Shown: positions 1,920 through 57,642 of the stretch, piece by piece
Layout: the number at the start of each line of letters is the position of its first letter
Position numbering within the stretch: position 1 is the stretch's first letter
Source of the DNA: Deltaproteobacteria bacterium
GTDB lineage: Bacteria; Bdellovibrionota; FAC87; UBA2466
Direction: 5' to 3'
Assembly: GCA_900299195.1 (NCBI GenBank)
Contig: OMIX01000089.1
Location: forward strand, 2,892-66,891
DNA length: 64,000 nt
Translations under genes and position numbers: made by a program
The notes under the pieces: generated by a model
What the model was told of the DNA's origin: nothing
Databases searched by the model: none
What the model saw: the letters and a program-made list of their open reading frames with translations, nothing else

Positions 1920-2384
1920 CTAGCGAGAGTGGAGAGGGACTGTTAAGTTTGAACGGGCTACAAAAATTTGTTCCATTCGATCAAGGTCGGCCTCAAGATG
2001 GTCGGCCAAATGTTCCCAATCAGAATCGCCTGCTAATCTCAAATCCCTTAACTCTTTCCGCACCAATTGATGATCAGCTCTAAGCTCCCGAAAAACTTTT
2101 CTTAAATAACTTCTCCGCGTGGATAATAATCGAGAAGCATGGATCTCCGCTTTCAACACCTCAAACTTGGTTCTCCAACTTTCAATCTCCTCCGCCAGTT
2201 TTTTTTCCCGCTCTATCCGAGTTGAGTCAATGGGAGTTTCCTGTACCGGCTCATCCACTGATCGTTCACTCTCAAGATGAGAAACTTTACCCGTCACTAC
2301 GGCTAAACTAAGCAAAAATAGCCCCCCCATCACAAAAAACCACTTTACCCTTTTACGGAGTTCCGGCTTAAGCTCCATGGGCAC
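1920..2384 (-). CDS. hypothetical membrane-anchored coiled-coil protein
   Basis: N-terminal hydrophobic segment followed by a charged heptad-like region; overlaps the upstream gene by 17 nt. Confidence 0.4.
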   Translation of the reverse strand: MPMELKPELRKRVKWFFVMGGLFLLSLAVVTGKVSHLESERSVDEPVQETPIDSTRIEREKKLAEEIESWRTKFEVLKAEIHASRLLSTRRSYLRKVFRELRADHQLVRKELRDLRLAGDSDWEHLADHLEADLDRMEQIFVARSNLTVPLHSR

Positions 2385-3003: not shown

Positions 3004-3025
3004 TAGCTTATCCTTCTTTAAGGAA

Positions 3026-3307
3026 TTGACTGCACTTCTGATGCCGACGTTGGCACCACCTATGCACTACTTAGGATCAAACTGGGAGGAGTCCATGAAA
3101 ATGAAAACAAGTTATTTTTTAAAAATGACCTCGATGATTTTGGGACTAGGTCTGATGTTTTGGGGTATTTACGGCAAAGTCTGGTGGGGAGCCCTGGGAG
3201 TGCCTTTGTTTATTTATGGTATTTCACCCAGAAGATCGGAAGACGAATACACCGTGACTCTACGAGAAGAGGAATCCCGAGAGAAATCTCCCAAAAAAGT
3301 GGCTTAA
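3026..3307 (+). CDS. possible small membrane protein (93 aa)
   Basis: Two hydrophobic helices; lies between minus-strand genes on the opposite strand, so it may be spurious. Confidence 0.2.
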   Translation: MTALLMPTLAPPMHYLGSNWEESMKMKTSYFLKMTSMILGLGLMFWGIYGKVWWGALGVPLFIYGISPRRSEDEYTVTLREEESREKSPKKVA

Positions 3308-5256
3308 TTGCCCAGTAGCTTATTTTTAGCTACTTCAAGCTCGCTAGATAGACGTTCCCATTCCACCATAGCTTGATGAAGTTTGCTCTCAAGTTGCGAA
3401 ATTTGCGACATTAAGGCTTGTTGTTCCTGTGCGGGCCGGCTGGTGAAGCTGCTGTTGGAGGCTATCGCTTGAAGCTCAGATTTTTGAGTTCCTAGTTTCT
3501 CCATTTCAGATTCAAGGGTGCTAACTTTTTTATCCAGCGAATTCACCTGGTTTTTAAGTTTTTTTCGCTCTTCGAAAGAAAGCTTGGGATTAACTGAAGG
3601 GCTCGCTTTGGGAGCTTCCATCACAGGAGCCTGGGAGGGTTTAGCTTTGCCCTCAAAGTGACGAACCAATTCAGGATATTTTTCAAAGAAGGAATTAAGG
3701 TCTCCAATATGATCGGTTAGCACATGATTGCTCGAAAGATAGAGAATTCTCTCGGCAACATCAGACAAAAAGTCTCTGTCATGGGACACAATTAACGTGG
3801 TTCCCTCAAAATCTTTGATCGCCTGTTTGAGCAGCGCTTTGGTTTCAATATCCAAATGGTTAGTGGGCTCATCGAGAAGAATCAAGTTCACCCGAGTGAC
3901 CAAAATCCTAAGCAGAGCTAACCTTGCTTTTTCACCTCCGCTCAATACTTTGGCTTTTTTCTCAATTTCATCATTGCCACTAAACCCAAAGGCTCCCAGC
4001 CATCCGCGAAGCTCCTCTAAGCTCACTCCATGGGCTTTAGCCCTTAAATTGTCCACGACAGTTTGGTCTAAGCTCAATTCAGCGAGCTGATGTTGACCGA
4101 AGTAACCGGTCTCTACCGCATGACCTTTTAAAAGATCCCCTTCTGTCAGTTTTAATCTCTCCCCTAAAACATTCAGCAACGTGGTCTTACCTGCTCCGTT
4201 ATCGCCGATAATAGCCACTCTTTGACCTCGTTTGATGTCTAAAGAAATATTTTTTAGTATCCAGGGTTGTTCTTCTTTGTATTTGAATGACGTATTTTTT
4301 AAGGATAAGGGAAATTTGGCTCCCGTTCCGGAAAGTCGAAATTTAAAATTCAAATTGTAGTTAAAGCCTTCAATACGCTGCAGCCGATCTTTAAGTTCCT
4401 TCTTTTCTACCTCGAGTGTCTCCGCCATTTTCAGTCGATGCTGCGCGCGAGCTGCTGTTTGAGCTTTAGCACGAAACTTGTAAACAAATTCCATGCACTC
4501 ATCGATTTTTTTCTGAATGCCTTCAATGTTTTTTTCTAAGTGACGTTTTTCATCTCCGAGAGAATCTCGAAAAGTTAAATAATCTCGCTGATGGGTTCTA
4601 AAATAGAATTTTCCACCGTGTAGTATGGCCAAAGAATCGGTTACTCTTTTTTGTAAAGCAACGTCGTGAGTGACTAAAATTAAACTGCCTTCGTACTCTT
4701 TTTCTAAAAACTCCTCAAGCCATTGAATCGAAGAAATGTCTAAATGGTTGGTGGGTTCGTCCAACAGCAATACTTCGGGTTTGTCTAACAAAGCCTTGGC
4801 AATAAAAATTCGTAAGAGCCAGCCCCCACTCAACTGACTCATGGGACCTTCCATCCATTCCTTGCTGAACCCTAAACCACTTAAAATTTTTCTAATCTCC
4901 CACTCTTGTTCGGCGGGATCGACAAATTCATCCTCATCCACTGTCATGTGACTCTGGATATATTTTAAAGGAGATTGGCTTTTCTCTTTGTGATGCTGAA
5001 TTTCGGTTACGGCATTCTCTAAGAGAGTTTGATCTAAAAAGCCTATACGTAGTTTCTTTCCGCCCACTACATTTCTTTTGCCTTCAGTGGACTCCGCTTT
5101 ACCTGCTAAGATTCTTAATAGGGTGGATTTACCCGAGCCATTTCTTCCGGCTAAAGCGACTCGCATTCCCTCATAAAGCGTCCAATTCACATCTTGAAAA
5201 AGTAATCGATTGGGTAATCGTACTCCGACATTTTCTAAAACTAGCTGAGCATTCAT
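3304..5256 (-). CDS. ABC-F family ATPase (Uup/EttA-like, two ABC domains plus C-terminal coiled coil)
   Basis: Two Walker A motifs ('GRNGSGKST', 'GDNGAGKTT'), two 'LSGGE'-type signature motifs, two 'LLLDEPTNHLD' segments, no membrane domain, coiled-coil C-terminal tail. Confidence 0.85.
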   Translation of the reverse strand: MNAQLVLENVGVRLPNRLLFQDVNWTLYEGMRVALAGRNGSGKSTLLRILAGKAESTEGKRNVVGGKKLRIGFLDQTLLENAVTEIQHHKEKSQSPLKYIQSHMTVDEDEFVDPAEQEWEIRKILSGLGFSKEWMEGPMSQLSGGWLLRIFIAKALLDKPEVLLLDEPTNHLDISSIQWLEEFLEKEYEGSLILVTHDVALQKRVTDSLAILHGGKFYFRTHQRDYLTFRDSLGDEKRHLEKNIEGIQKKIDECMEFVYKFRAKAQTAARAQHRLKMAETLEVEKKELKDRLQRIEGFNYNLNFKFRLSGTGAKFPLSLKNTSFKYKEEQPWILKNISLDIKRGQRVAIIGDNGAGKTTLLNVLGERLKLTEGDLLKGHAVETGYFGQHQLAELSLDQTVVDNLRAKAHGVSLEELRGWLGAFGFSGNDEIEKKAKVLSGGEKARLALLRILVTRVNLILLDEPTNHLDIETKALLKQAIKDFEGTTLIVSHDRDFLSDVAERILYLSSNHVLTDHIGDLNSFFEKYPELVRHFEGKAKPSQAPVMEAPKASPSVNPKLSFEERKKLKNQVNSLDKKVSTLESEMEKLGTQKSELQAIASNSSFTSRPAQEQQALMSQISQLESKLHQAMVEWERLSSELEVAKNKLLGN

Positions 5257-9241: not shown

Positions 9242-10996
9242 TTCCTGAATTTGCTCAAAAAACTTTTCGTCCCACAAGTAATTAGGATCGTAGGGATAAC
9301 TTACCATGGACATTATTCGACGATAATAATCTTCTTCTTCTCGTGTTCCTCTGATTTGAGCTTTTATCGGCTGACTATCTTGAGGAAGACTTTCTAAAAT
9401 ATCTTCTAACCCATCATAAATTTTGGGCACTTTGAAAAGTTGCGGAGACCGGAAAAGTGGAAAGAAAGATACTTCCGAAGAGATAGCGCTTTCAATCACG
9501 GCTGAGGAATCATTACAAATACCGACATAGGCATAACCATCTGAGGGATAATCCTTAGCATAAAGCTGGGCCTCTTTGCGAATTCGTCTTAAGTAAAGTT
9601 CAGCGTATCGAGTTGCCTTTTTGATGATGGCTCTATTTTGAGGAGAATTATCAAAAATCTGAAACCGATGGGCTAGGCCGGTCCATTGAGGCCTTTCCTC
9701 GTCAAATTTCGGGAAAAACCCTACCCCGCTAATACCCAAGAAAAAATTCACCCGAGCATTAACGACAGGTCCCGTCACTTGCCAAACAAATTGGGAATGA
9801 GGGGCGGGTAAAAGCAATTCATCACCTGACATCGATTGGATTTGAGTTTTAAACCAAACGGGCCATCGAATATATTTTTCCCCTCTTGCGTAAGATAGAA
9901 AATTCGCAAAGGTTCTCTCATCTCGTAATTCAATGTGATGCCCCGTAGCCCACAAGAGTTCCAAAAACTCGTTCAACTGGGTCACTTTCATTCGTTCGTT
10001 GCCTTCAAAAGGAAAAGATAGCTCATACCCTTTTTGCTCAGCTAGAGCGGTCATAACTGAACTTAAAGCTAAATTTTGAGCCATCATCTTTAAAGGGACC
10101 GATTCTGAGACAAAATGGCCGTAACCGATATTGGGTAATTTGGGATCAACAGCCTGCAATTTTGGATAAGAAGTAAACTCATTACTTGCAATGACATCTT
10201 CCCACTGAGCAGGTAAGAGACTGTTTTCAGAACCTGCTTTCTTCTTTCCGATAAACTTAGATAAATAGGGTCTTAGGAGATTCAATTGATTGACCGAAGG
10301 TAATGTTGGAAATCGGGCTAGAGCTTTTCCATCTTTTTTTGAGAGAACTTGGGTGACTTGACTCACCAGCTTTTGCATTTCCTCTCCAGGAACTGTGTTC
10401 AGCTTCAAAAACTGTGTGAGTTTTTCTGAAAAAACTCTAAGTTCCTCAGGCTGGAGCCCTCGAATAAACTCAGCAAGAGATAATTCAGGACGACCACACC
10501 CCGCTACGCACTCCACGTTCCATAAATCATGGCTCTTAGGAACCACTAAAAGGTAGTTACCGCTCTTTTCAAGTTCGACATGATAAATGAGCTGCTTTTT
10601 AGAGGAACTGGCTCCAGGAGATACCTCTTTAAAAAACCTCTCTTTGTGGTCCGATTCTTTTTTGATTAAAATGTGAGACGTTTTGCTTTCATCGATAAAA
10701 TCTTTGGAAGGCACCACCTTGATTTTTAGTCGGGTATTGCCGAACGAATGATATCGATAGGAGACTTGGATATCTTCAGGAAAATTCTTTTGATTGAGAA
10801 CTAAATTAAAATCTAGAGGGAATTGAAGCTTTGGTTCACCTCTATCTAAGCTATCGGCCCACAGAAGGGAACCACTCAAAACGAAAGTGAATGCGAAAAT
10901 AAAAAGACGATACGCCTTAGGTATCCCAAGCCTCAAAAACACGACTGACCTCCTGAAAAGCAAACGCAAATTAAGGCATTTGCTGCATCGGGTCAA
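9227..10996 (-). CDS. hypothetical exported/membrane-anchored protein (589 aa); downstream partner of the Cys/Arg-rich peptide gene
   Basis: N-terminal hydrophobic anchor; no recognisable catalytic motif; 13-nt gap to the upstream small gene. Confidence 0.5.
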   Translation of the reverse strand: MTRCSKCLNLRLLFRRSVVFLRLGIPKAYRLFIFAFTFVLSGSLLWADSLDRGEPKLQFPLDFNLVLNQKNFPEDIQVSYRYHSFGNTRLKIKVVPSKDFIDESKTSHILIKKESDHKERFFKEVSPGASSSKKQLIYHVELEKSGNYLLVVPKSHDLWNVECVAGCGRPELSLAEFIRGLQPEELRVFSEKLTQFLKLNTVPGEEMQKLVSQVTQVLSKKDGKALARFPTLPSVNQLNLLRPYLSKFIGKKKAGSENSLLPAQWEDVIASNEFTSYPKLQAVDPKLPNIGYGHFVSESVPLKMMAQNLALSSVMTALAEQKGYELSFPFEGNERMKVTQLNEFLELLWATGHHIELRDERTFANFLSYARGEKYIRWPVWFKTQIQSMSGDELLLPAPHSQFVWQVTGPVVNARVNFFLGISGVGFFPKFDEERPQWTGLAHRFQIFDNSPQNRAIIKKATRYAELYLRRIRKEAQLYAKDYPSDGYAYVGICNDSSAVIESAISSEVSFFPLFRSPQLFKVPKIYDGLEDILESLPQDSQPIKAQIRGTREEEDYYRRIMSMVSYPYDPNYLWDEKFFEQIQELAIP

Positions 10997-11009
10997 TACA
11001 CTATTTTAG

Positions 11010-11246
11010 CTAGCAGATACGACGACAGCGGGTTCGGCATCGAACTCTAGCTACCGAGTAACATCGCACCCGTTTCACGCATCTAGAAACCGGCCGAACG
11101 CACCTTCGAGCACAAGGTCTAGCCCTAACAACGGGCGCACAGCCATGGCTTCCACATCTAGCTTCTGCCGGTGTAGGCGCTAATGTAGCTAAAGTTACTC
11201 CGACTAAAAACAACCCTTTAATCGTATTTTTACCAATACTTAACAC
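11010..11246 (-). CDS. secreted cysteine- and arginine-rich cationic peptide precursor (78 aa, GTG start)
   Basis: Signal peptide ending 'PAEA'; mature 49 aa with 10 Cys and about 14 Arg; strong SD 'AGAGGGG' 7 nt upstream of GTG; locally GC-rich. Confidence 0.45.
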   Translation of the reverse strand: MLSIGKNTIKGLFLVGVTLATLAPTPAEARCGSHGCAPVVRARPCARRCVRPVSRCVKRVRCYSVARVRCRTRCRRIC

Positions 11247-11519
11247 AGTTTTACCCCTCTATTAATTCCAACTCCTAGGTGAGAACTGATTGAAAGTTCT
11301 CACTAGGTTCCGTCTGGGCTAAGAGCAATGAATGTACCAAACTAAAAATAGGTTATCTTCGAAGGTTACAATTGTCCTATAGGTGGGCAAACGAAAACTT
11401 GTTAAACAATTTCATTAAAAGCGACAAAATTTGTTACTTTGTGGAACCCAATGGGACCGGACCGTAGCGTTCAGATTTGGATTACCTAGCTACTTCGAAA
11501 AGTGCTTTCCTTCCGCTGA

Positions 11520-12356
11520 TTAGGTTTCAATTTCGATTTCAAGCGCACATTTCAAAATAAAATCAATTTCGGATTCATCCAACGAAAGCAAGACTGAAGC
11601 AAGATCTTCTTCCATGTGTTTAGGCTGGGTAGTTCCAGTCAGAGGCAACATTCCTACTTGTCGAGCAAAAGCAAAAATAATTTGTGCGGGAGTAGCTCCT
11701 CGTTTTTTTGCCATGTCTATCACTTGAGGAAATTGCATCACAAACGGATTGGCTGTGAGAAGAGAAAAACCCTGGTAAGTTATCCTGTGGGCTGCACATA
11801 TTTTTCTCACATGAAAATCCCATCCGGTTTGAGCAAAACATCGATTTTGAACCACTTGAGGTTTGATCCGTGACTTTTCTACCAACTCTGTCAATTGGAG
11901 ATGATTAACATTACTTACTCCAATTTGTTTTGCTTTTCCTTTGTCGTAAACTTTCTCTAAAGCTTCCCAAACTTGCCAATCTTCTTCCCCCAAGTTCGGA
12001 TGATGATAAGGGCCGTGAAGCAAATAAGAATCTAGGTACTCGACTTTTAAATGGTCTAGAGACTTTTCAATCGATTGCTCGACTTGAGTTTTGATTGGCG
12101 CTGTTGGATCGTAAGGAACGCGATGATCTTGCCCCCCGATTGGAGTAAATTTCGTTTGAATAAAAATACTTTCTCTACGATGCCCCTCTTTAAAATAATG
12201 TGCTAAGGCTTCTCCCACTAGAGGTTCGGTGTAGTGCTTAGACTGATTGGCAGTGTCTATTGCGACGAACCCTTTTTTAAGCGCTAATGCTACCAAGTCT
12301 TGGGTTCGTTCCTTTTTCCATGCTGTTCCGTACATTAAAGAAAATTTCACAAACAT
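11520..12356 (-). CDS. aldo/keto reductase family oxidoreductase
   Basis: AKR fold with 'GFVAIDTAN', catalytic Tyr/Lys/His context, 278 aa. Confidence 0.8.
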   Translation of the reverse strand: MFVKFSLMYGTAWKKERTQDLVALALKKGFVAIDTANQSKHYTEPLVGEALAHYFKEGHRRESIFIQTKFTPIGGQDHRVPYDPTAPIKTQVEQSIEKSLDHLKVEYLDSYLLHGPYHHPNLGEEDWQVWEALEKVYDKGKAKQIGVSNVNHLQLTELVEKSRIKPQVVQNRCFAQTGWDFHVRKICAAHRITYQGFSLLTANPFVMQFPQVIDMAKKRGATPAQIIFAFARQVGMLPLTGTTQPKHMEEDLASVLLSLDESEIDFILKCALEIEIET

Positions 12357-13597
12357 TGTCCTTTCAATTCATGCCATTCTTTTTGAAGTCGATCTCTGTC
12401 TTCTGGATGAGCCAAAGAAATCATCGCTTTGACCCGTTGAGAAATATTTTTTCCAAAAAGGTTTACAGCTCCAAATTCAGTCACAACATGGTGAACGTGG
12501 GCACGAGTCGTCACTACCCCGGCACCTCGTTTTAAAGAAGATACAATTCGGGATTGCCCCGATTTCGCTCGAGAAGTAAGTGCAATAATAGCCTTGCCAC
12601 CTTCGGACAAAGATGCCCCTCGGACGAAATCCATTTGCCCCCCGACTCCAGAAATGATTTTGGGGCCTATCGAATCGGCACACACTTGACCGGTAAGATC
12701 AATCTCAACGGCACTATTCACTGCGACCATTTTAGGGTTTTTCAAAATCACACTCGGGTTGTTAACATAACTGGATTCCACTTGAATCACTGAAGGATTG
12801 TCATGAACAAACTGATACAGTCGGCGGGTTCCCATCATGAAAGATGAAACCGTTTTTCCAGGATGCTTCCTCTTTTTTGAATTATCGACTGCTCCGCATT
12901 CGATTAAATCTAAAACTCCATCTGACCACATCTCGGTATGAATGCCTAAGTGTTTGTGGTTTTTTAGAAAACTTGCAACCGCATCCGGAATCGCACCAAT
13001 TCCAAACTGAAGAGTCGAACCATCCTCAATGAGATCCGCGACATTTTTTCCGATTAATGTTTCGTTTTCTTTCAACTGTACTCGTGGGAACTCAGGCAAT
13101 TTTTCATCCACTTCGATGGTCGCATGAAATCGACTTTGGTGAATGAATCCATCCCCATGAACCCTGGGCATCTGGGGGTTGATTTGAGCAATCATACAAC
13201 GAGCGGTCTCAACCGCAGATTTAGCCACATCGACACTCACCCCAAGTGAACACCACCCCTTGCTATCAGGGGGTGAGACATGAATCAGTGCCACATCGAT
13301 CGGCAGTATCCCCGTTCGAAACAGGCTGGGTATTTCTGATAAAAAACAAGGAAGGTAATCGAACCGTTCACAATCCTGCTTTTTTCTTAAGTTAGAGCCC
13401 AAAAAGAGACTATTCACTCTAGTGTTATCTTTAAAGGAATCTTCCGCGTAGGAAAGAGCCCCTTCCGTGTGGAGATGAATAAATTCTAAGTTTTTGTGAC
13501 TACTCCAAACTGGATGAAGTCGCTTTAGTAGCGCTTGAGGAGTCGCTGCCCCCCCGTGAACAAAAATGCGTTGGTTAGAATGAAACAAAGATTCCAT
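12347..13597 (-). CDS. acetyl-CoA hydrolase/transferase family protein (4-hydroxybutyrate CoA-transferase-like)
   Basis: Two-domain CoA-transferase architecture, 416 aa, conserved 'GGQ' and 'SEGG' C-terminal motifs. Confidence 0.75.
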   Translation of the reverse strand: MESLFHSNQRIFVHGGAATPQALLKRLHPVWSSHKNLEFIHLHTEGALSYAEDSFKDNTRVNSLFLGSNLRKKQDCERFDYLPCFLSEIPSLFRTGILPIDVALIHVSPPDSKGWCSLGVSVDVAKSAVETARCMIAQINPQMPRVHGDGFIHQSRFHATIEVDEKLPEFPRVQLKENETLIGKNVADLIEDGSTLQFGIGAIPDAVASFLKNHKHLGIHTEMWSDGVLDLIECGAVDNSKKRKHPGKTVSSFMMGTRRLYQFVHDNPSVIQVESSYVNNPSVILKNPKMVAVNSAVEIDLTGQVCADSIGPKIISGVGGQMDFVRGASLSEGGKAIIALTSRAKSGQSRIVSSLKRGAGVVTTRAHVHHVVTEFGAVNLFGKNISQRVKAMISLAHPEDRDRLQKEWHELKGQCL

Positions 13598-13650
13598 GCA
13601 AACAATATATCGAACGGGGTCTTAACTGGAAAGTTAAGACCCCAAACTTT

Positions 13651-14988
13651 TTACTGTTTCTGAATGGGTGGACCCGATTTCTCTGGAACATCCTTCAATT
13701 CAAAACTGTCGGTCTGAGGAATTTCCTCCGACTTCTGCTGTTTCAGTTGAGATTTCGAAGGTACCTGAGTTTCAGGAATGACTTTCTCCGATGCCTTCAC
13801 CGAAGTGATTGGAGCCGCAGGGGCACTTCCCCATCCCAATGCTAACGAGGCCAAATATCTTCGGCTCTCTCTTCGATTGCCTTCACTAGTCTCCTCACCG
13901 TAAGTCGCTAAATCTAGCCTTAAAGCATAGAGATTGATTCCAAGTCCGGCCGAGAGATATCCCTGATTAAGACCAGCTCTCACTGAGAATCTCCCCATGG
14001 GAACCTCGACCCCCAAGTGAAGTTTCTTAACAAAATCTCCGGTTCTAGCCCCAAAGTCTGCCCGGTTTTCTCCCCCTAAAGAAATATCAGAAATGTCGGC
14101 TAGCACATGGAAGTTATCAATGAAGGAAAATCCTTCAAAAGCGGTATACCAACCCAAGTTAACCGTTCGAACAAGACCTGGAGCCCCGGCGTTTTGTTTA
14201 GCAATCGCAAACTGAGTTGCTAACAAATTACTCAAAACAATCGAAGCTCGACTTAACACCCCAAAAGGAAGTTGTTTTATCTCGTAAGTCGCTCCTAAAT
14301 CAAGATCGACTCCCATCCCACTTCCCCCGATTTTAGCCGGATCAAAATCGATGGCAGAACTATTGTTATATTCGGCAAGAGTAAAGGGTTTTCTGCCAGC
14401 CCCTCGCAACAAACCTTTCAGATTTGCGCCTAGATGTAAGTTGGAATCGAAAAATGATTGGGCATATCCAATGAGCAGTCCCGAATCGCTGATGAAAGAC
14501 ATCTCGGCCACTTCAGTATTCACATCAGCCAAACTAGCGATGTCTGAACTGGATTTCAGAATATTAAAATTGAGTTTGGTATCGGCTAATAAAAGTCCCA
14601 CCGCAAGATTTTTGGTTAGAAAATAGGGTAAAAGCCCCACACTTCCAAACATAGGTTTTTCTTTATGTTTGTCTAATCGATTGATGGCCTGATTAATGTT
14701 GAGATCTCCCAGATCTTTGAAATCATTAAAACCAGAAATGGCATTGGAAGACACATTCCCATTCACTCTCAACATCACTTCAGTGCCACTGCGTCTTAAA
14801 CTTAAACCAGCCGGATTCGAAAAGAGTGCGTATTCATCCTCTGAAATTCCATAGAAGGCTCCGCCCATTCCCATGGACCTTGGGCTGCGTGAAAGACTGT
14901 AAAATTCTTTCACTGCAAATAAGGGGTAAGAAAAAAAAGTTAAACCTAATAGGATAACAAAAAGGTGTTTCATGGAGATCTCTCTCAA
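13651..14988 (-). CDS. FadL/OmpP1/TodX-family outer-membrane transport protein with disordered C-terminal tail (paralog of 37702..39144)
   Basis: Signal peptide; N-terminal hatch motif 'RSMGMGGAFYGISEDEYALFSNPAG' resembling FadL '[26 protein letters not shown]'; Pro/Glu/Lys/Ser-rich C-terminus lacking a terminal aromatic residue. Confidence 0.55.
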   Translation of the reverse strand: MREISMKHLFVILLGLTFFSYPLFAVKEFYSLSRSPRSMGMGGAFYGISEDEYALFSNPAGLSLRRSGTEVMLRVNGNVSSNAISGFNDFKDLGDLNINQAINRLDKHKEKPMFGSVGLLPYFLTKNLAVGLLLADTKLNFNILKSSSDIASLADVNTEVAEMSFISDSGLLIGYAQSFFDSNLHLGANLKGLLRGAGRKPFTLAEYNNSSAIDFDPAKIGGSGMGVDLDLGATYEIKQLPFGVLSRASIVLSNLLATQFAIAKQNAGAPGLVRTVNLGWYTAFEGFSFIDNFHVLADISDISLGGENRADFGARTGDFVKKLHLGVEVPMGRFSVRAGLNQGYLSAGLGINLYALRLDLATYGEETSEGNRRESRRYLASLALGWGSAPAAPITSVKASEKVIPETQVPSKSQLKQQKSEEIPQTDSFELKDVPEKSGPPIQKQ

Positions 14989-40004: not shown

Positions 40005-40580
40005 TCAACAACCCAATCCAAACTGCACAGCCCCCGTACAAAAAGCCGGCCGAACCGGTTGGAGTGAGGGTTGTGTCAAAACATCTCTCTGAACTAATTG
40101 CCAACCCGCTTGTTGAAGTTTTTGAGCACGATCTGAGGTAATTTCAAATCCTCTCGCAACTAAATTAGAGCCGACTCGACTCACAATTCCGCCTAACTGT
40201 GAAATAAACCAAGGTCGGGTTTCAGGATAATTAGCATACTGACCATTCGACATAGTCGAATACATCATAATGAAATTAATTAAATTGTCAGAACACTGCC
40301 CTCCCAAAGAAGGGATTACGGGAAGTCCTCCCCCCATTCCAGCTTGAGGGTTGCTCATCATCATCATGACTGGAGCTAAGCTATTAGCGCCCGATTTTCC
40401 GCATTCTTCTTTTGTTTGTTGGGCTAAAGTAAACATAGTTTGAAGTTGGGCCTGATCGGTAGGGTTATTCAATTTAAGCCCAGGCGGCTGCGGTGGTGGA
40501 GCCGAACTGTCTCCGCATCCAATCATGAAAAGCAGTAAACTTTGAGAAAAGAGAATCAAAATGTGTTTCATAACTAACAC
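40005..40580 (-). CDS. hypothetical lipoprotein, Met/Gly-rich
   Basis: Lipobox 'MIGC'; low-complexity 'MMMMSNPQAGMGGG' region. Confidence 0.4.
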   Translation of the reverse strand: MLVMKHILILFSQSLLLFMIGCGDSSAPPPQPPGLKLNNPTDQAQLQTMFTLAQQTKEECGKSGANSLAPVMMMMSNPQAGMGGGLPVIPSLGGQCSDNLINFIMMYSTMSNGQYANYPETRPWFISQLGGIVSRVGSNLVARGFEITSDRAQKLQQAGWQLVQRDVLTQPSLQPVRPAFCTGAVQFGLGC

Positions 40581-46876: not shown

Positions 46877-48751
46877 ATGTGTGGAATCATCGGTTATATA
46901 GGTTTTCAAGATCCTAAAGGGATTCTTTTGGATGGACTTAAACGGTTGGAATACCGAGGATACGATTCTGCCGGAATTGCTATTCTTGAGGGAAATAAAA
47001 CTCTCTTATTCCGTTCTGAAGGTAGAATACAAAAATTGGAAAGTAAGCTGACTCAAGAGCACTTTCAAGGGCATTTGGGAATAGGGCATACTCGTTGGGC
47101 TACTCATGGAGCCCCTACTGAAAACAATGCTCACCCCCATCAAGCTGGCCCCATCACTTTAGTCCACAATGGAATATTGGAAAACTACTTAGACCACAAA
47201 CTTAATCTACAAAAAAACAAAGTTTCTTTCTCGAGTGATACCGACACTGAAGTGATTGCCCACCTCTTTCACCAAGAAATTCAATCGGGAATATCTCTCA
47301 AAGATGCGACCTTCAAAATTTTGCCTACCCTGAAGGGATCTTATGCTTTTGTTGTTATTCATGAAAATGAGCCTGATGTAGTAATAGGCACTGCTCAAGG
47401 AGCTCCGCTAATTATTGGACTAGGAGAGAAAGAGACTTTTCTAGCTTCTGACGTGCAAGCTATTTTGCATCGAACCAATAAAGTCATTTATCTCGAAGAG
47501 GGTCAAGTCGCCGTTTGCAAAAATAATCAAGTCGAGCTTTTTTCTCGAGAGGGTAAAAAACTCGTCCCTCAAATAAAAACTCTACAATGGTCAGCGGAAC
47601 AAATGGAAAAAGCTGGCTATCGACACTACATGCTCAAGGAAATCCACGAGCAATCCCAGGCCATTGCCAACACCATCTCGGGCCACATGGAATCCGTAAG
47701 TGGCACTATTCAAATTCCTGAGATCCTGAAAATCAAAGACAAGCTTAAGACCCTTAACAGAATCTCTATTGTTGCCTGTGGAACTGCAAGACATGCAGGA
47801 CTTGTAGGAAAATATTATTTTGAAAAACTTTCAAGAATCTCAACCGACGTCGATTTTGGATCCGAGTTTAGATATCGACAACCCATCTTAGATAAAAACT
47901 CGTTAACTATTTTAATTTCTCAATCAGGCGAAACAGCAGACACTTTGGCTGGACTTAGAGAGTCAAAATCTCAAGGAGTAGCCACCTTATCCATCTGTAA
48001 TGTGAGAGAAAGTTCTCTGGCTCGAGAATCGGATTTGGTTCTTTACACCAATGCAGGCCCCGAAATTGGAGTAGCTTCCACGAAAGCCTTCACCACGCAA
48101 TTAACCATGCTTTACATGTTGGCGGTTCAGCTAGGAGAAATTCGAGGCACCATTACCAAGGAATATGCCAAAGAATTAGCAACCGATTTGATGCATCTCC
48201 CCCACCTGGTAGACCAAACTTTAAGGCTCGAAAATAAAGTTGAAGAGATTGCACAAAGTTTTCAAGACCATCCGTTTTTCTTCTACATGGGGAGAGATTG
48301 CTTGTACCCCATTGCTCTAGAAGGAGCGCTAAAACTTAAAGAGATCAGTTACGCACATGCAGAGGGGTATCCAGCTGGCGAATTAAAACATGGACCTATT
48401 GCTTTGATTGATCGGCAAGCTGCTGTGATTGTTCTTGCGCCTCGAAATAAAGCGCCGGAAACCCAAACGGATCTGAATGATTTTGATCACAATATTCTGT
48501 TTGATAAAATTTTAAGTAATCTTCAACAAGTAAAAGCTCGAGGGGGACAAATTTTGACAGTGGGAAGTGAAGAAGACTCTCTTTTTCCGAAAGAATCTAA
48601 ATATTTTATAGGTCTACCGAAATGTTCTTGGGCACTTAATCCTATTTTGACCACCCTGCCACTTCAGTTGTTGGCTTATCACATTGCCTCTCTAAGAGGA
48701 ACTGACGTCGATAAACCCAGAAACCTAGCCAAAAGTGTTACGGTAGAATAA
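46877..48751 (+). CDS. glmS: glutamine--fructose-6-phosphate aminotransferase
   Basis: 'MCGIIGYIG' N-terminal nucleophile, two SIS domains, C-terminal 'KSVTVE'. Confidence 0.9.
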   Translation: MCGIIGYIGFQDPKGILLDGLKRLEYRGYDSAGIAILEGNKTLLFRSEGRIQKLESKLTQEHFQGHLGIGHTRWATHGAPTENNAHPHQAGPITLVHNGILENYLDHKLNLQKNKVSFSSDTDTEVIAHLFHQEIQSGISLKDATFKILPTLKGSYAFVVIHENEPDVVIGTAQGAPLIIGLGEKETFLASDVQAILHRTNKVIYLEEGQVAVCKNNQVELFSREGKKLVPQIKTLQWSAEQMEKAGYRHYMLKEIHEQSQAIANTISGHMESVSGTIQIPEILKIKDKLKTLNRISIVACGTARHAGLVGKYYFEKLSRISTDVDFGSEFRYRQPILDKNSLTILISQSGETADTLAGLRESKSQGVATLSICNVRESSLARESDLVLYTNAGPEIGVASTKAFTTQLTMLYMLAVQLGEIRGTITKEYAKELATDLMHLPHLVDQTLRLENKVEEIAQSFQDHPFFFYMGRDCLYPIALEGALKLKEISYAHAEGYPAGELKHGPIALIDRQAAVIVLAPRNKAPETQTDLNDFDHNILFDKILSNLQQVKARGGQILTVGSEEDSLFPKESKYFIGLPKCSWALNPILTTLPLQLLAYHIASLRGTDVDKPRNLAKSVTVE

Positions 48752-48800
48752 GAGGCTTTGCTTTTATTTAGCGTTCAGCTTTTCCTGAATATACTAAAAG

Positions 48801-49922
48801 TTACTCATAACCCAGACTTTTTAGTTTTAAAGTAACCCTCTGGATAAACCAGTTTCCCAACTTAATCCCTGGTTCTTCAATTAAAACATGGATGAAACTT
48901 GCCACACTGAAAGACACTGCTACCAACAAAATAAAATGAACCAAACTTCCAAAGTTAGACCCAGTTAAGTACTGGGTAAGACCTATTTTTTGAAACAAAT
49001 AGATAATGGCAAAATGAAATAAATATATTCCATAGCTCTGCCTGCCTAGTTTCACAGTTACAAAATTTACGAAAATAACGACTTGATGTAGGGACAGGAA
49101 CATTACGAATATTGAGATAGCTATAGCATCAACAACCCATTGAGGCATAAACAATGGTGATCCAAAGGGTAAGTAAGACCGGAAAACAGTGATTATAAAG
49201 ATGAATCCACCAATCCAGTAAAATCTAACCTTTCTGATCCCGTTTTTTAAAAAACAAAAAGTGATAATTCCGATTAGAAATACCGGAAACTGCGCCAGGA
49301 AATTTAAATAACAAAAATCTCTAACCAGATATTGCTGATTAACAGGATAATTAAATAAACCCATGATGAAAGGCTCACTCATCTTAAGTATCCATAGACT
49401 TGAGAAGAACATTAAAATTGCAAACACGGGAGACCTAACTTCTGATAACAAAAAGGGCACAAGCAAATAGAAAAAAGCTTCATTTGCTATCGACCATCCT
49501 CCAGGTACCAACGAGTTTATTGTTAAAGGATTAAATCCGTGCAAAAATGTTGCGGTAAGAAAAATGTCCCATCTATTTACTCCCATAGGAGCTGAATATC
49601 TAGGTTTCAATCCATTCAAAATAAGAAAAATCACTATCGCTAGATAAAACAGCGGGGCAATCCTAAAAACCCTTTTTAGATAAAAGTTTAATTTGGGGAA
49701 TCTTTCACTAGCCATTTTTGAATACCAGGACATGCAAATAGCAATAGCAGATACAATGAAAAACAATTGGACTCCTAGCATTCCTTTTTTCATTATTCGA
49801 TTTAATAATTCATTTGTGGGAACAGCATATTGACTAGAATGGACAAGAACGACAGCCAAAATGGCTAATCCCTTAAGAGCATCAAGATAGGGATACTTTT
49901 TTATATCCATTGAATAACCCAT
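48801..49922 (-). CDS. acyltransferase family 3 membrane O-acyltransferase (OafA/NolL-like)
   Basis: 10 or more TM helices; acyltransferase-3 N-terminal pattern 'LDALKGLAILAVVLVHS'; flanked by a 35-bp direct repeat. Confidence 0.75.
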   Translation of the reverse strand: MGYSMDIKKYPYLDALKGLAILAVVLVHSSQYAVPTNELLNRIMKKGMLGVQLFFIVSAIAICMSWYSKMASERFPKLNFYLKRVFRIAPLFYLAIVIFLILNGLKPRYSAPMGVNRWDIFLTATFLHGFNPLTINSLVPGGWSIANEAFFYLLVPFLLSEVRSPVFAILMFFSSLWILKMSEPFIMGLFNYPVNQQYLVRDFCYLNFLAQFPVFLIGIITFCFLKNGIRKVRFYWIGGFIFIITVFRSYLPFGSPLFMPQWVVDAIAISIFVMFLSLHQVVIFVNFVTVKLGRQSYGIYLFHFAIIYLFQKIGLTQYLTGSNFGSLVHFILLVAVSFSVASFIHVLIEEPGIKLGNWFIQRVTLKLKSLGYE

Positions 49923-50002
49923 TCTTACTTAGAGTTGCTGTAGCTAAAGTAGATAGGAAGTAGCGCCAGAAACCTAGCCAAAAGTGTTACGGTGGAATAA
50001 CT

Positions 50003-50800
50003 TTAAGCGACTTGAGGGAGGTCTTTTTCCTTGCTGTAAAGATCTAACATCTCACTTGCAGATCCCAAGGCAATTACTTTGCCTTGCTTCATGTAAACTC
50101 CTCGATTACAAAGCTTGTTAACGGCTTTTTCATCGTGACTCACAAACAAAATGGTACGACCGCTATTAGCTACAGAACGCATTTTATTTATGCATTTGTT
50201 TTGAAAGGCTGTATCTCCAACTGCTAACACTTCATCTACAAACAAAATAGGTTGATCCAAATGAGCTGCGACAGAAAACGCCAATCGAACGTACATCCCT
50301 GAGGAGTAATGCTTAATTGGAGTATCGATAAATTTTTCGACTTCAGAAAAATCTACAATGGCATCAAACTTAGCTTGAATTTCTCTTCTTCTCATTCCTA
50401 AGATCGCACCATTGAGAAAAATATTTTCTCTTCCTGAAAGCTCAGCATGAAATCCGGTTCCCACTTCCAACAAAGCCGAAGATTTTCCCCTGATGACAGC
50501 TCTACCCTCAGTAGGAAAAGTGATTCGAGAGAGAATTTTTAAAAGGGTCGATTTGCCACATCCGTTGCGACCAATCAATCCTACAATCTCACCCGGCTGC
50601 ACAGAGAAAGAGACATCTTTTAACGCCCAAATATAATCGTTGGAATTTTCGTTTTGCTTATTCCCTTTTAACATTCCTATCGGTCCATTCTCTCTAAGAT
50701 TTTTAGAAAACCTATTAAGAACTTCTCTGATTGAAGTCGTACCGATGACACCCAGGCGATACTGTTTGGAAATATTTTGAACTTCAATTATTGGCTTCAT
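50003..50800 (-). CDS. polysaccharide/teichoic-acid-type ABC exporter ATP-binding protein (Wzt/TagH-like)
   Basis: Walker A 'GRNGCGKST', signature 'YSSGM', Walker B 'LFVDE'. Confidence 0.8.
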   Translation of the reverse strand: MKPIIEVQNISKQYRLGVIGTTSIREVLNRFSKNLRENGPIGMLKGNKQNENSNDYIWALKDVSFSVQPGEIVGLIGRNGCGKSTLLKILSRITFPTEGRAVIRGKSSALLEVGTGFHAELSGRENIFLNGAILGMRRREIQAKFDAIVDFSEVEKFIDTPIKHYSSGMYVRLAFSVAAHLDQPILFVDEVLAVGDTAFQNKCINKMRSVANSGRTILFVSHDEKAVNKLCNRGVYMKQGKVIALGSASEMLDLYSKEKDLPQVA

Positions 50801-50803
50801 AAA

Positions 50804-51691
50804 TTAAATAATATCAACAAAGTCTCTTTCTACTCGGTTAAACATCATCAACCCCAACACCACAGAAACCATAGAAACGATTAAGGATACGAATAAATAT
50901 GACACTTCCAAGGCAGAGGTCCCTAAAAAAACATGACGAAACGTATCTACCACTGCAATGAGGGGGTTAAAAACCGTTAAATAATAGAAACGTTCTGGAA
51001 TTTTACTTACAGGATAAACCACTGGGGTCGCATAAAACCATAACTGAATAAAAAACCCTAAGACATGAGTTAGGTCTTTATATTTCACCGTAATAGCTGC
51101 AAACATCAGCCCTAAACCTAAACACATCGCAGAAGTAATGAGGAGAAGCAAGGGAGTCAAAGCCACGATCTTAATGAGATCGGGATGAATGATATTTCCT
51201 GCCGCAGTAAATAATTTATAAAAAATAAGCAACCCCATAAAAACTAGGAGTTGAGTAAAAAAAATCAATGATTTTGAAATCACCACAGAAAGAGGCATTA
51301 CAAGTCTAGGAAAGTAAACCTTTTGAAAAATATAAGCATTGGCAATTAACACATCCGCAGTTTGTTGAAAGGCAACTGAGAAATAGCCCCAAATGACTAA
51401 CCCGCTAAAATAAAAAAGAAGGTGAGGAATTTCATCCGTTGACATCCCTCCTAGTTTTCCAAAAACGGCAGTTAAAACTCCTGACATCATAATAGGTTGT
51501 ACGATGTACCAAATGGGTCCAAGAATGGTTTGGCGATAACGAGCTATAAACTCTTTTTGTACAAAGAGAGTAATCAAATCTCTAAATTGCCACAACTCTA
51601 CCCAATCGATTCTGAACCACTGATAATTGGCGTCAATTACCGTAGTTGAATTGAGACGGTCCGAGTAGACCTTTTTCAAATATGCGCGCAT
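50804..51691 (-). CDS. ABC-2 type polysaccharide exporter permease (Wzm-like)
   Basis: 6-TM ABC-2 permease; 4-nt spacing to the ATPase gene. Confidence 0.75.
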   Translation of the reverse strand: MRAYLKKVYSDRLNSTTVIDANYQWFRIDWVELWQFRDLITLFVQKEFIARYRQTILGPIWYIVQPIMMSGVLTAVFGKLGGMSTDEIPHLLFYFSGLVIWGYFSVAFQQTADVLIANAYIFQKVYFPRLVMPLSVVISKSLIFFTQLLVFMGLLIFYKLFTAAGNIIHPDLIKIVALTPLLLLITSAMCLGLGLMFAAITVKYKDLTHVLGFFIQLWFYATPVVYPVSKIPERFYYLTVFNPLIAVVDTFRHVFLGTSALEVSYLFVSLIVSMVSVVLGLMMFNRVERDFVDII

Positions 51692-51802
51692 GAGCCAAGT
51701 TTGTTGTTATTAGGAAATTAAGAAGATTCATTTATTATCCTACATTTAGCGAGATTGTATAAGCTAAAATTTGATTTGCAGCGAGGCAACGTGCCTAACA
51801 CA

Positions 51803-54034
51803 CTAAGGCCACAAACGCGCCATGGCCTGAGAAGCCCCAGCTATTCCGCTGAGAACAAGTTGGATGCCATCTAAAATAATGCGGTTGGCCGCAGAGTTCC
51901 CTTGAGTAAAACTGACTGTTTTTAGATGGTTTCCATCATTAATAAAATTACCATTAGATTGATACCTTTTGATCAACATTTGATTGGATGCAGTTCCAAC
52001 TATCAAAATCTGACCAGCTGAATCAACTTCAATATCTTTGGCTTCTGTACTTATAGTATCGGTGATGAGACCTGAGCTTCCAAACGTAGTGTCCAAACCC
52101 AGGTTGGTATTCAGCCTGATCACCGCTAGTTGGGAACCGTTAGTTCCAGCGAGTAAAATTTTTCCAGAAGCATTAAAGGCGATTGGATTGACTGTACCTT
52201 GACCAAATTGAGACAGAGTCAAAGTAGGTGGCAAATTAGCCGGATCAAATCGGGTCACTGACATTTTTGAATCAGAAGAAGTGCCCCCTATCACAATATT
52301 TCCAGAGCCGTCCTTCTTAATGCGGGTGGCCAAAGCAGAAAAGGTAGGGTTCACCAGGTTATTAGGATCCATGGCCCCGGTGACTTTCGGCACAAAGATA
52401 AAATTAAATTTGTTCCCTACCAGAACCAAGTTTCCAACATTAGTAGTTTCAATTCCAATGAGCTCGTCATCTAATGCCATCAGATCTCGGGTTTGTACTG
52501 GAAAATCAGAATTGAGTACCAGATCATTACCCATCAAATTAAGTTTTCCATATAACCAATCCTTCCCCGAACTTCCTCCAAAATCGGCCCAGCCAGCAAA
52601 ATAAACATCGGACCCCTCAATCACCATGGAGTTAATACGCGAGGAGTTACCTATGGTATCACTCACATTGAACTCAGACTTAACGGCACCCGTATCTCTG
52701 TCTACCAAAGCTAAATAGCCCCTCTCAACTGAAGAAACGATTTTGTATCCAGCAATCAAATAGCCCTCAGAAATTTTAATGATCGACAAGATTTCTCCAG
52801 GTGAAAGAGCCAACTTGCCATCACTACTAAAAGCAGTGTCCAACACTAAGTGAGTGACGTTAAGGGTAGCCGTAGCGTTAGTTAATCCAGTCGAGCTTCC
52901 AGTGAGAGTCACGCTAGTTACTGCGATAGAGGTGACTTTAAAGAACAGTGCCGCTGAAGGCGACGCACTGCTGATCCCCACCGAAGTTCTAATGTTACTT
53001 CCACTTTGACAATCACTTAAGCTTGTAAAAAACTGACCGTTCCCGCCTGAAGATAAGCTCACGGTCTTATTGTTCTCACTAAACGCATTCCCCAACCCAT
53101 CTCTCGATGTGATAGTGAACGAGCCACTACACACACCGACGTTTAAGGTGGCGGGTGCGGAATCAAAAGTTAACGCGGTAGCCGTTCGGGTCACAGCGAT
53201 AGTGGCTGTTCCATTTGAAACTATCGGATCACTTACTGCCAAAGAAGAAGTGATGACTCTCGAATTGGTATTTATGCTTGTGACTTTAAAAGAAAGATTA
53301 CCCGTTGTGGTATTATTCTCAGGAATGCTGACTGAGGTCGTTTCATTAACACAATCATTCCCAGTATAAAATTTGGCTTCGAAATTAACTCCTAAGCTAA
53401 TCTGGGTTTCAGTTCCTCGGGTAAATGGGTTACCCAGTCCATCGATACTTGTCACCGTAAGTCCACTCGCACAAACACCAACATTAGCCGAATTGGGATT
53501 CCCATTAAACCTAAGGGCCGTAACTACCCTCTTAACCTCCGAGCGGCCTATCTCGCTCGAAAATCCACGACTGCTAGCAGAAAAAGCGACAGGATTGCTG
53601 GTAGCTTGATTGTAATCGTAATTAGTTGGCTTATAGTAAATCAGTTTTCGACTTTCCCCAGCGTTCATGGGAATTGAAGTCATACTCGCGCCAGAACAAT
53701 TGGAAGTAGTATAAAAATTCCCCCCTTGCCCCGTGGCTTCGAGATTCACAACTATAGAACTTTTAAGTCGAACTTCAATAGAGCTTCCTCGATTCACTGC
53801 AGTTGCCACGCTCACATCCACGGGCTCACAGAGGGTCAGTCCGAGTTCCGCTTTTCTTGATTTGATAAGAATACGACTGGGTAACAATGCCGGATCCTCT
53901 GAAAAATTGAGTGCCTGCTTTTGGGGAGCTTTTTCCTCATCAAAAGACATGAAACCAAACTGACAAGAGGTTAAGACAAAGGTAAGAAGAAGAGCTAAAA
54001 GACGATTTAGGAATGTTAAAAACGTGCTTTTCAT
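51803..54034 (-). CDS. large secreted protein with tandem Ig-like repeats and a C-terminal beta-propeller-like region
   Basis: Signal peptide; repeated ~100-aa units ('ALRFNGNPNSANVGVCASGLTVTSIDGLGNPF' / 'ALTFDSAPATLNVGVCSGSFTITSRDGLGNAF'); Gly/Ser/Thr/Asn-rich. Confidence 0.55.
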   Translation of the reverse strand: MKSTFLTFLNRLLALLLTFVLTSCQFGFMSFDEEKAPQKQALNFSEDPALLPSRILIKSRKAELGLTLCEPVDVSVATAVNRGSSIEVRLKSSIVVNLEATGQGGNFYTTSNCSGASMTSIPMNAGESRKLIYYKPTNYDYNQATSNPVAFSASSRGFSSEIGRSEVKRVVTALRFNGNPNSANVGVCASGLTVTSIDGLGNPFTRGTETQISLGVNFEAKFYTGNDCVNETTSVSIPENNTTTGNLSFKVTSINTNSRVITSSLAVSDPIVSNGTATIAVTRTATALTFDSAPATLNVGVCSGSFTITSRDGLGNAFSENNKTVSLSSGGNGQFFTSLSDCQSGSNIRTSVGISSASPSAALFFKVTSIAVTSVTLTGSSTGLTNATATLNVTHLVLDTAFSSDGKLALSPGEILSIIKISEGYLIAGYKIVSSVERGYLALVDRDTGAVKSEFNVSDTIGNSSRINSMVIEGSDVYFAGWADFGGSSGKDWLYGKLNLMGNDLVLNSDFPVQTRDLMALDDELIGIETTNVGNLVLVGNKFNFIFVPKVTGAMDPNNLVNPTFSALATRIKKDGSGNIVIGGTSSDSKMSVTRFDPANLPPTLTLSQFGQGTVNPIAFNASGKILLAGTNGSQLAVIRLNTNLGLDTTFGSSGLITDTISTEAKDIEVDSAGQILIVGTASNQMLIKRYQSNGNFINDGNHLKTVSFTQGNSAANRIILDGIQLVLSGIAGASQAMARLWP

Positions 54035-56715: not shown

Positions 56716-57642
56716 ATGGTAAAACTACGGGGTTTTCGTATGGCACATTCTGAAAAATTTGAATTCAAAAAGCTCACTCCAAGAGCCCGCCCTGTTCTAA
56801 AATGGGCGGGTGGGAAGTCGCAACTACTCCCCCAACTTATTCCCTTTTTCCCTACCCAATTTAATCGTTATATTGAGCCTTTTCTGGGGGCTGGTTCCGT
56901 CTACTTTTCTTTAGATCCCAAATGCCCCGCCTTAATTAATGATGCCAATCCCGAACTTTATGAACTTTACCTTGTTTTGAGAGATCATCCGGCAGCTCTC
57001 TGCCGATTATTAGATAAATACTCAAGGAAATACTCAGAACAATTTTATTATGACCTTAGAGCTTCTCAACCCAGAAACCCCATCTCAAAAGCAGCACGTT
57101 TTATTTTTCTCAACAAGACAGGTTTTAATGGACTCTATCGCTTAAATTCAAAAGGCCACTTTAATGTTCCTTTTGGAAAGAGGGAAAAATGTCCCTTACT
57201 TTACGATGAGGAAAATATTAAACGAGTGTCGGAGCGTTTAAAAAAAAGTCAGATCAAAAATATGGATTTTGAAAAAGTCATTCGCTTAGCCAAAAAGGGA
57301 GATTTTGTTTATTGCGATCCCCCCTATTCCCCACTATCGAGAACTTCATCTTTCAACAGCTACACAGCAGGTGGTTTTTCTGACCAAGAGCAAAATCGCC
57401 TAAAAGAGGCCTGCGCAGAAGCAGCTCACCGAGGAGCTTTTGTGGCTGTTTCCAACTCTTCGGCCCCAATTATTTTAGAACTTTTTAAAGATTGGAAGAT
57501 ACACCTGATTAAAGCTCGACGAAGCATTAACTCTAAGAGCCATTTGCGCGGACCCATTCATGAGGTTTTGACGACCTCCTGGGACTTTAAAAAAAATCAC
57601 TTTAATTCAAATCATCCGGGCCGACCACTTTTCCATCTGTGA
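56716..57642 (+). CDS. dam: Dam-family DNA N6-adenine methyltransferase (orphan)
   Basis: 'LKWAGGKSQLLPQL' SAM-binding N-terminus, catalytic 'DPPY' ('YCDPPYSP'); no adjacent restriction endonuclease. Confidence 0.85.
   Translation: MVKLRGFRMAHSEKFEFKKLTPRARPVLKWAGGKSQLLPQLIPFFPTQFNRYIEPFLGAGSVYFSLDPKCPALINDANPELYELYLVLRDHPAALCRLLDKYSRKYSEQFYYDLRASQPRNPISKAARFIFLNKTGFNGLYRLNSKGHFNVPFGKREKCPLLYDEENIKRVSERLKKSQIKNMDFEKVIRLAKKGDFVYCDPPYSPLSRTSSFNSYTAGGFSDQEQNRLKEACAEAAHRGAFVAVSNSSAPIILELFKDWKIHLIKARRSINSKSHLRGPIHEVLTTSWDFKKNHFNSNHPGRPLFHL

Follow-up and report, generated by a model that had tools for sequence, protein, structure and literature searches.

A lineage-specific and probably still polymorphic acyltransferase gene insertion at the glmS terminus of an uncultured freshwater bacterium

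The 3' end of glmS is the target of Tn7, whose TnsD protein binds a 36-bp site within it; the insertion point is about 20-25 bp beyond the stop codon, where 5 bp are duplicated (PMC2918618). Other described systems offer further points of comparison. Cis-mobilizable elements (CIMEs) are decayed integrative elements that keep attL and attR and have lost the integrase and transfer genes (PMC5704250). In phage Sf101, the acetyltransferase is encoded by orf16 and the integrase by orf18 (int), with attP located just upstream of int, and oacB is also found in strains that have no intact phage (PMC4159516). The 'tycheposon' islands of marine picocyanobacteria have att motifs of about 40 nt and include degenerated remnants (bioRxiv 10.1101/2020.12.28.424599). 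In this study, we analyzed a 64-kb stretch of contig OMIX01000089.1 (hereafter the window; motif counts, open reading frame (ORF) scans and the repeat search were all made within it) from an uncultured freshwater lineage, whose relatives were deposited under the names 'Deltaproteobacteria bacterium' or 'Bdellovibrionota bacterium'. We found that the gene of an AT3-family acyltransferase lies between glmS and the convergent polysaccharide-export genes wzm-wzt, bracketed by two copies of the glmS 3' end, and that this arrangement is a lineage-specific and probably still polymorphic insertion of a single gene at the glmS terminus.

First, the 35-mer CCAGAAACCTAGCCAAAAGTGTTACGGTAGAATAA, which is the final 35 nt of the essential gene glmS (48717-48751), recurred at 49966-50000 with 34 of the 35 positions identical. 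The sole mismatch, A at 48745 in the left copy and G at 49994 in the right one, is synonymous (Val codon gta versus gtg), and the uninterrupted identity covers the first 28 nt. The left copy corresponds to the last 11 glmS codons plus TAA and encodes (P)RNLAKSVTVE followed by the stop. Identity between the copies stops exactly at this stop codon, with the glmS reading frame restored, and the right copy ends 2 nt short of the wzt stop codon. No further copy with up to three mismatches was present in the window, none of 100 dinucleotide shuffles of the window gave even two matches to the 35-mer, and the pair was the window's only high-identity direct repeat of at least 22 nt. The insert together with one repeat measures 1249 nt, and the acyltransferase gene is the sole ORF of at least 60 aa between the copies. 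An earlier note on this DNA had described the 35-nt repeat of the glmS end with its single A/G mismatch, the end of the second copy 2 nt before the wzt stop, and the acyltransferase as the only gene in between, and all three descriptions proved accurate. The same arrangement, including the A/G difference, was found in the MEGAHIT contigs L001/L010, the Logan contig L004 and the SPAdes contig L002. Since the structure recurred in independent assemblies by three assemblers (MEGAHIT, Logan and SPAdes) and in at least two samples, an assembly artefact was rejected.

Second, analysis of the same locus in five related lineages (GlmS 76-83% identical) revealed that glmS was always tail-to-tail with wzt, with the stop codons 1-6 nt apart, in full synteny, and that neither the repeat nor the acyltransferase gene was present at the glmS-wzt junction. 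In the sister species L007/L009 from Lake Tanganyika (GlmS 83% identical), which was recovered by one genome-collection scan and one metagenome scan, a single nucleotide separates the glmS TAA from the wzt stop. The four further relatives (GlmS 76-82% identical; L016-L019, L020, L021/L022, and L023 from GCA_002359565.1) all had empty sites as well. The shared flanks comprised epimerase, HAD, SDR, GHMP-kinase and GT2 genes on one side, and wzm and a beta-propeller protein gene on the other; BLAST alignments of the relatives' loci to the window ran up to 48751 and were picked up again at 49966 or beyond. In a neighbor-joining tree of GlmS rooted with more distant homologs, the window grouped with L009 and L020, whereas L016, L021 and L023 formed the sister group. 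Since the window is nested among empty-site lineages, one gain would be needed, versus at least two precise losses. It appears almost certain from this comparison that the insertion is unique to the window's lineage and was gained once, and the relatives show the ancestral state to have been a convergent pair of glmS and wzm-wzt with about 2 nt between the stops. This is what the earlier note had proposed, as an insertion into an ancestral tail-to-tail locus, and the empty site was recovered in five of five related lineages.

The opposite polarity, in which the occupied state is ancestral and the relatives lost the insert by recombination between the repeats, would produce exactly the empty sites observed, and an empty allele even seems to co-exist with the occupied one (see below). 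However, the nested position of the window would then call for at least two independent precise losses in place of a single gain, and an orphan glmS terminus requires an insertion or duplication event anyway. Moreover, wobble positions have diverged freely in the relatives whereas the two copies here are identical at 34 of 35 positions, which points to a young duplication. Loss in the relatives is therefore extremely unlikely as an account of the locus.

The same wobble divergence bears on what the 35-mer is. Several wobble positions in the last 35 nt of glmS differed among relatives, and the nearest one (L007/L009) carries G at the mismatch position, like the right copy. Compared with this divergence, the near-identity of the two copies suggested a recent duplication rather than a conserved motif, and a specially conserved element was rejected because the wobble positions vary freely. 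A role of the second copy as a shared terminator or as another functional RNA or DNA structure was also rejected: the folding z-score was about 0, no terminator hit was obtained and the relatives lack the copy. Rfam matches in the window were limited to two tRNAs elsewhere, with none at the repeat. The earlier note had itself named a contrary scenario, in which the relatives carry both repeat and gene and the second copy belongs to a terminator; neither was found in the relatives, and the folding result did not support a terminator.

How does this locus compare with Tn7? Both use the conserved glmS 3' end without disrupting the gene. However, Tn7 lands some 20-25 bp past the stop, whereas the insert starts at the base after TAA (48752), where the ancestral spacer to wzt was only about 2 nt; Tn7 duplicates 5 bp and the copies here span 35 nt; and Tn7 has structured inverted ends and tnsABCDE, whereas the insert has no Tn7 ends, tns genes or transposase. 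We thus rejected Tn7 on the insertion point, the duplication length and the missing tns genes and inverted ends, in agreement with the earlier note, which had set it aside on the length of the duplication and the lack of transposition genes; the junction at the stop codon adds to this. An insertion sequence was also rejected, as there is neither a transposase nor a pair of terminal inverted repeats: no inverted repeat joins the insert termini, and the search of the insert ends for short inverted repeats that the earlier note had recommended gave none. As a separate observation, a Tn7-like element guided by the orphan right copy would land within wzt.

Flanking direct repeats are the classical footprint of transposition, and transposons are known to target the glmS 3' end (PMC2918618), so a true target-site duplication also has to be considered. 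Here, a transposase- or casposase-like enzyme would have made 35-nt staggered cuts, inserted a linear element of 1214 bp and left the gaps to be repaired. The insert ends have no terminal inverted repeats and a transposase is absent, and to our knowledge 35 bp far exceeds the duplication of any described transposon family; that of Tn7 is 5 bp (PMC2918618). It would also take a coincidence for the duplication to stop precisely at the stop codon, and the copies differ at a position where the inferred empty allele matches the right copy only. Together, these points leave a staggered-cut origin highly improbable.

A reciprocal crossover is favored over a staggered-cut duplication because the identity ends at the stop codon, glmS is restored, and the right copy has G in common with the nearest relative as well as with the inferred empty allele. 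The occurrence of A in the left copy and of G in these three fits a cross of attP(A) with attB(G) in which the exchange took place to the left of the mismatch. In the mechanism that we propose, the incoming DNA would have been a small circle with an attP-like site that matched the final 35 nt of glmS and had the A variant, and the chromosomal glmS terminus would have had the G variant. A single reciprocal exchange of the Campbell type, placed in the 28 identical bases at the start of the two sites, would have generated attL(A)-cassette-attR(G), and this crossover would most likely have been catalyzed by a site-specific recombinase encoded off the insert. It is common for elements to use the 3' ends of genes as targets and to leave repeats of this kind, and an identity that stops at the stop codon and restores the gene is expected of them. 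The insert would then be either the remnant of a decayed prophage or integrative element with one cargo gene left, as in a CIME-like islet, or a minimal cassette that depends on a recombinase supplied in trans. The claim of the earlier note that the insertion had duplicated its target needs to be modified accordingly: the duplication is real, but since the identity ends at the stop and the copies differ at a wobble position, it is better read as att-type, with the incoming DNA bringing its own copy of the glmS end, than as the product of staggered cuts. We are highly confident about the insertion itself and its direction, while a recombinase-mediated crossover has, in our judgment, an even chance of being the route.

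Among described systems, the insert is best filed under the known pattern of att-flanked, integrase-less islets. Like a CIME, it lies between direct repeats that consist of the target gene's 3' end, leaves that gene restored, and contains cargo only, with no integration or transfer genes. However, described CIMEs are far larger than this unit of 1.2 kb and one gene, an intact relative among integrative and conjugative elements, integrative and mobilizable elements or prophages is not known for it, and the target is a glmS coding terminus in an uncultured Bdellovibrio-like lineage. The gene order of Sf101 shows how a deletion could leave only an acetyltransferase between att sites. The serotype-converting phages (Sf6 with oac and Sf101 with oacB) also share with this locus an AT3 acyltransferase as a horizontally acquired O-antigen modifier close to an att site, although no phage genes occur here, the best phage homolog is only 32% identical, and the gene is wired into an operon of the ABC-transporter pathway (wzm-wzt). 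An integron cassette would likewise be a unit of about 1 kb with one apparently promoterless ORF oriented for an upstream promoter. This identity was rejected, since the insert has no attC-type fold (z-scores of -0.01 to -0.38 for attC-like folding of the insert ends plus repeat), no flanking inverted repeats and no intI or attI nearby, the window encodes no tyrosine recombinase, and the repeat copies the end of a host gene. Finally, the 'tycheposon' islands resemble this locus in having att motifs of about 40 nt common to element and host and in the partial target-gene copies left by old integrations; in contrast, their targets are tRNA genes and they are linked to identifiable integrase-bearing elements, none of which were found here.

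Third, the ends of several contigs provided a hint about the present population. Contig L011 (ERZ23495462) terminates at 48744, contig L002 (ERZ11848522, SPAdes-style name, 1331 nt) covers exactly 48690-50020, and contigs L005 and L006 begin at 49966; these four come from two assemblies, possibly of the same sample. We simulated de Bruijn graphs for several allele mixtures. The occupied allele alone gave no branch points at any k of at least 29, a mixture with an A-carrying empty allele branched at 48751 and 49995, and a mixture with the circular junction branched at 48717 and 49993. Only the occupied allele plus an empty allele with G, at k=55, gave nodes (48690-48744 and 49966-50020) equal to the observed contig ends. 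According to this modelling, a minor empty-site allele carrying G may co-exist with the occupied form in one sample. Another cassette with a G-type left repeat would predict identical contig breaks. The predicted contig of the empty allele would be only 82 nt long and would carry no gene call, and an actual same-species sequence of the empty site was not found (L024 and P0241 both stop before the junction). The Logan contig L004 (k=31) runs straight through the right repeat, which is consistent with a rare variant. With regard to strain L010, the whole of 48071-52185 was free of single-nucleotide polymorphisms (SNPs) in comparison with the window; because this applies to the entire region, the SNP-free insert is uninformative on recent acquisition.

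The acquired gene itself appeared to be intact. Its product matched Acyl_transf_3 (PF01757) with 94 bits, against a gathering score of 31, over profile positions 2-324 of 326, and retained all 53 columns that were invariant in an alignment of 15 homologs, including D14, G18, H28, F54, S58, W143, S144, E148, F151, Y152, S296, Y300, L301 and H303 (R17 was nearly invariant). All four AT3 motifs, which correspond to those of OacB (PMC4159516), were present: DGxRGxxxxxVxxxH, an FFxxSG-type motif, WSxxxExxFY and SxYLxH. The protein has no SGNH domain, as in Oac-type O-antigen acetylases, and no NCBIfam equivalog matched it. The gene reads in the same direction as wzm-wzt and follows wzt after 80 nt, an arrangement that the earlier note had not mentioned, and no promoter-like or terminator-like site was found between the two. 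Because of the shared orientation and the lack of a match to a promoter or terminator of its own, the acyltransferase is probably the new last gene of the wzm-wzt operon and transcribed by read-through. Judging from its family and position, the enzyme would O-acylate the polysaccharide exported by Wzm/Wzt, and in the proposed scenario this could alter a surface antigen or phage receptor. Its nearest homologs outside the lineage were 49-53% identical and resided in ordinary polysaccharide contexts with glycosyltransferase or methyltransferase genes. The gene had the lowest GC content of the 55 ORFs (0.347), which reflects the amino-acid content of a membrane protein, while both GC content at third codon positions (GC3; z-score -1.6) and synonymous codon usage (z-score -0.7) were within the range of the window.

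A number of observations weigh against a mobile, recombinase-delivered origin of the insert or against parts of the scenario above. Integrase, transposase and recombinase domains were found neither in the insert nor in the 55 window ORFs of at least 150 aa, and our searches recovered no intact parent element, attP-bearing phage, cognate integrase or sister cassette. The repeat pattern had no match in IMG/VR, and in metagenomes of the Joint Genome Institute it matched only the empty site of the sister species, with no donor or sister cassette. The 35-mer has no detectable inverted-repeat core or other structure, and the non-coding insert DNA amounts to only 49 + 43 = 92 nt, so that arm-type sites as used by a lambda-like integrase would find little space. 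The nearest homologs of the acyltransferase do not adjoin glmS, and a pattern scan of IMG/VR gave no viral relative. The earlier note had recommended looking for phage or island relatives of the gene and for a deviating composition of the insert, and both came out negative: the best match in GenBank phages was 32% identical and the best one anywhere outside the lineage 53%, and a compositionally foreign insert was rejected because GC3 and synonymous codon usage were ordinary. The empty allele is one that we infer from contig ends, not one seen as sequence, and it must be rare, given the near-equal coverages of the insert contig (16.6) and the wzt contig (15.7). L002 is unbroken at 48717 and 49993, so the assembly graph has no branch for a circular junction and there is no sign of ongoing excision. 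Likewise, both O-acylation and operon read-through are what we infer from family membership and gene order.

Two explanations that dispense with a dedicated recombinase gain from these results. In the first, a circularized fragment with the acyltransferase gene and a glmS 3' end, for example one excised or transformed from a close relative, integrated by RecA over the 28-35 nt of short homology. The lengths involved agree with this, as the minimal length for RecA-dependent exchange is in the range of 28 nt and the uninterrupted identity of the copies is close to it; in addition, the window contains no recombinase gene, the repeat has no att-like inverted-repeat core, and the host-like codon usage fits a closely related donor. 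On the other hand, recombination at such a length is very inefficient, the donor arrangement was not found in the five related lineages, and a circle joining the gene to the glmS terminus exactly at the stop would have to exist beforehand, which merely relocates the origin of the junction. We consider this route possible but unlikely. In the second, a replication-based or end-joining illegitimate event (template switching or fragment capture at a break) inserted the gene and duplicated the 35 nt, with nothing mobile involved. The absence of mobility genes and of sister cassettes and the confinement of the event to one lineage would all be expected from this, whereas the clean boundaries would not: glmS is whole again, the repeat reaches just to the stop codon, and a complete ORF sits in the correct orientation between short flanks. 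Furthermore, we reason from the published strand-replacement model that homology-facilitated illegitimate recombination of the one-sided type would substitute incoming for recipient DNA and create no duplication. Such an event therefore seems improbable, and the recombinase-mediated crossover is still preferred.

To further evaluate the glmS terminus as an integrase target, IMG/VR was scanned for the degenerate coding sequence of NLAKSVTVE plus stop, and 102 contigs matched. In nine viral contigs (including L051, L039 and L059), glmS faces a convergent gene for a large serine recombinase (Resolvase, Recombinase and Zn-ribbon domains) that adjoins or runs into the glmS stop, and in at least four others (L028, L105, L115 and L085) a tyrosine integrase is located 250-430 nt downstream of glmS. 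Thus, with both serine and tyrosine integrases beside its stop, the glmS terminus is a real integrase target in other organisms. Based on these gene arrangements, prophages seem to use the glmS 3' end repeatedly as attB, in addition to its use by Tn7, and the viral contigs together with our locus point to its use as an insertion site by non-Tn7 routes. In the literature on integration at the glmS end, only papers on Tn7 and mini-Tn7 were found. No second direct copy of the glmS terminus was present in 82 viral loci; an apparent match in L051 was a mirror image arising from an inverted repeat of 3571 nt.

Some details of these viral contigs may be mentioned. L051 (IMGVR_UViG_3300025809_001788) has an exact terminal inverted repeat of 3571 nt (1-3571 and 10676-14246), possibly an assembly artefact. 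The C-terminus of its recombinase (272-1948, minus strand) is the antisense reading of the GlmS terminus, and within one arm the last 22 nt of glmS (290-311, plus strand) recur inverted at 2197-2218 (minus strand), flanking the serine recombinase gene. In a cluster of seven viral contigs (L053, L055, L080, L084, L089 and L096 among them), a Peptidase_S8 subtilase of about 530 aa starts 70-100 nt past the glmS stop on the same strand.

A more far-reaching idea is that minimal single-gene cassettes without promoters form a class not yet described, of which the 1249-bp unit would be one functioning example. Such cassettes would have a copy of the glmS terminus as their only recombination site, and the recombinase that moves them would come from another part of the genome or from a phage. 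If so, the glmS 3' end would serve as an integron-like docking point at which surface-polysaccharide modifiers are swapped in natural populations, and the occupied/empty polymorphism would reflect ongoing turnover; we regard this as quite improbable. An insert that is mobile in trans would be an unusually small cargo-only element. In general, the event is a tidy case of a known kind and not a new mechanism, a small and fairly ordinary example of how surface-sugar variation is acquired. Its value lies in the fact that the states before and after the addition of a surface-polysaccharide modifying gene to an export operon were both recovered in an uncultured freshwater bacterium, and occupied and empty forms may co-exist in one population. 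The features of the locus are listed in Table 1.

Table 1. Features of the glmS-wzm locus in the window, with strand and supporting observations
Feature	Position	Strand	Observation
glmS, glutamine--fructose-6-phosphate aminotransferase, 624 aa, intact	46877..48751	+	Pfam SIS 4e-51, GATase_6, GATase_7; homolog alignment with 100% coverage
Left repeat, attL-like, functional glmS 3' end, A variant	48717..48751	+	Identical in the second occupied strain L010
Unique part of the insert, 1214 nt	48752..49965	.	Absent from all five related lineages
Non-coding left insert end, 49 nt, glmS stop to acyltransferase stop	48752..48800	.	No terminator or significant structure
AT3-family (Acyl_transf_3, OafA/Oac-like) membrane acyltransferase, 373 aa, looks intact	48801..49922	-	PF01757, 94 bits
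Non-coding right insert end, 43 nt, upstream of acyltransferase start	49923..49965	.	Promoter-like site not found
Right repeat, attR-like, orphan non-coding copy of glmS 3' end, G variant	49966..50000	+	Contiguous with wzt as in the empty sites
wzt-like polysaccharide-export ABC ATPase, 265 aa	50003..50800	-	PF00005 (ABC_tran); NCBIfam TagH/Wzt export ATPases, all below curated cut-offs
wzm-like ABC-2 permease, 295 aa, directly upstream of wzt	50804..51691	-	PF01061 (ABC2_membrane); NCBIfam Wzm/KpsM-like, below curated cut-offs

Several other features of the window were observed. A protein encoded at 2368-3003 (minus strand) contains Host_attach (PF10116) and baeRF family 12 domains, the former family being named for the attachment of Bdellovibrio to prey; together with the labels of the relatives, this suggests a Bdellovibrio-like bacterium that is probably predatory. 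Upstream of wzm, the gene at 51803-54034 (minus strand) encodes a delta-60-repeat/DUF5122 beta-propeller of 743 aa, compared with 985-1088 aa in the four relatives in which the whole gene was covered. Of 35 SNPs between the two sequenced strains, 18 fell within 53039-53211, and a 63-nt stretch at the end of contig L001 matched 52866-52928 at 95%. These features suggest a surface protein with repeats that is hypervariable. Between kdsA and a LolD-like ABC ATPase gene, a D12-class N6-adenine DNA methyltransferase (PF02086, 4e-58) is encoded at 56716-57642 (plus strand), with no obvious restriction partner. In the relative L021, a Fic-domain gene takes the place of the window's HAD and kdsA genes after a conserved 258-aa gene, which indicates that this flank is variable. 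Finally, five SNPs within 26 nt (40553-40578) distinguished the window from strain L010 near the start of the ORF at 40005-40580 (minus strand), in a region that was otherwise 99.8% identical.

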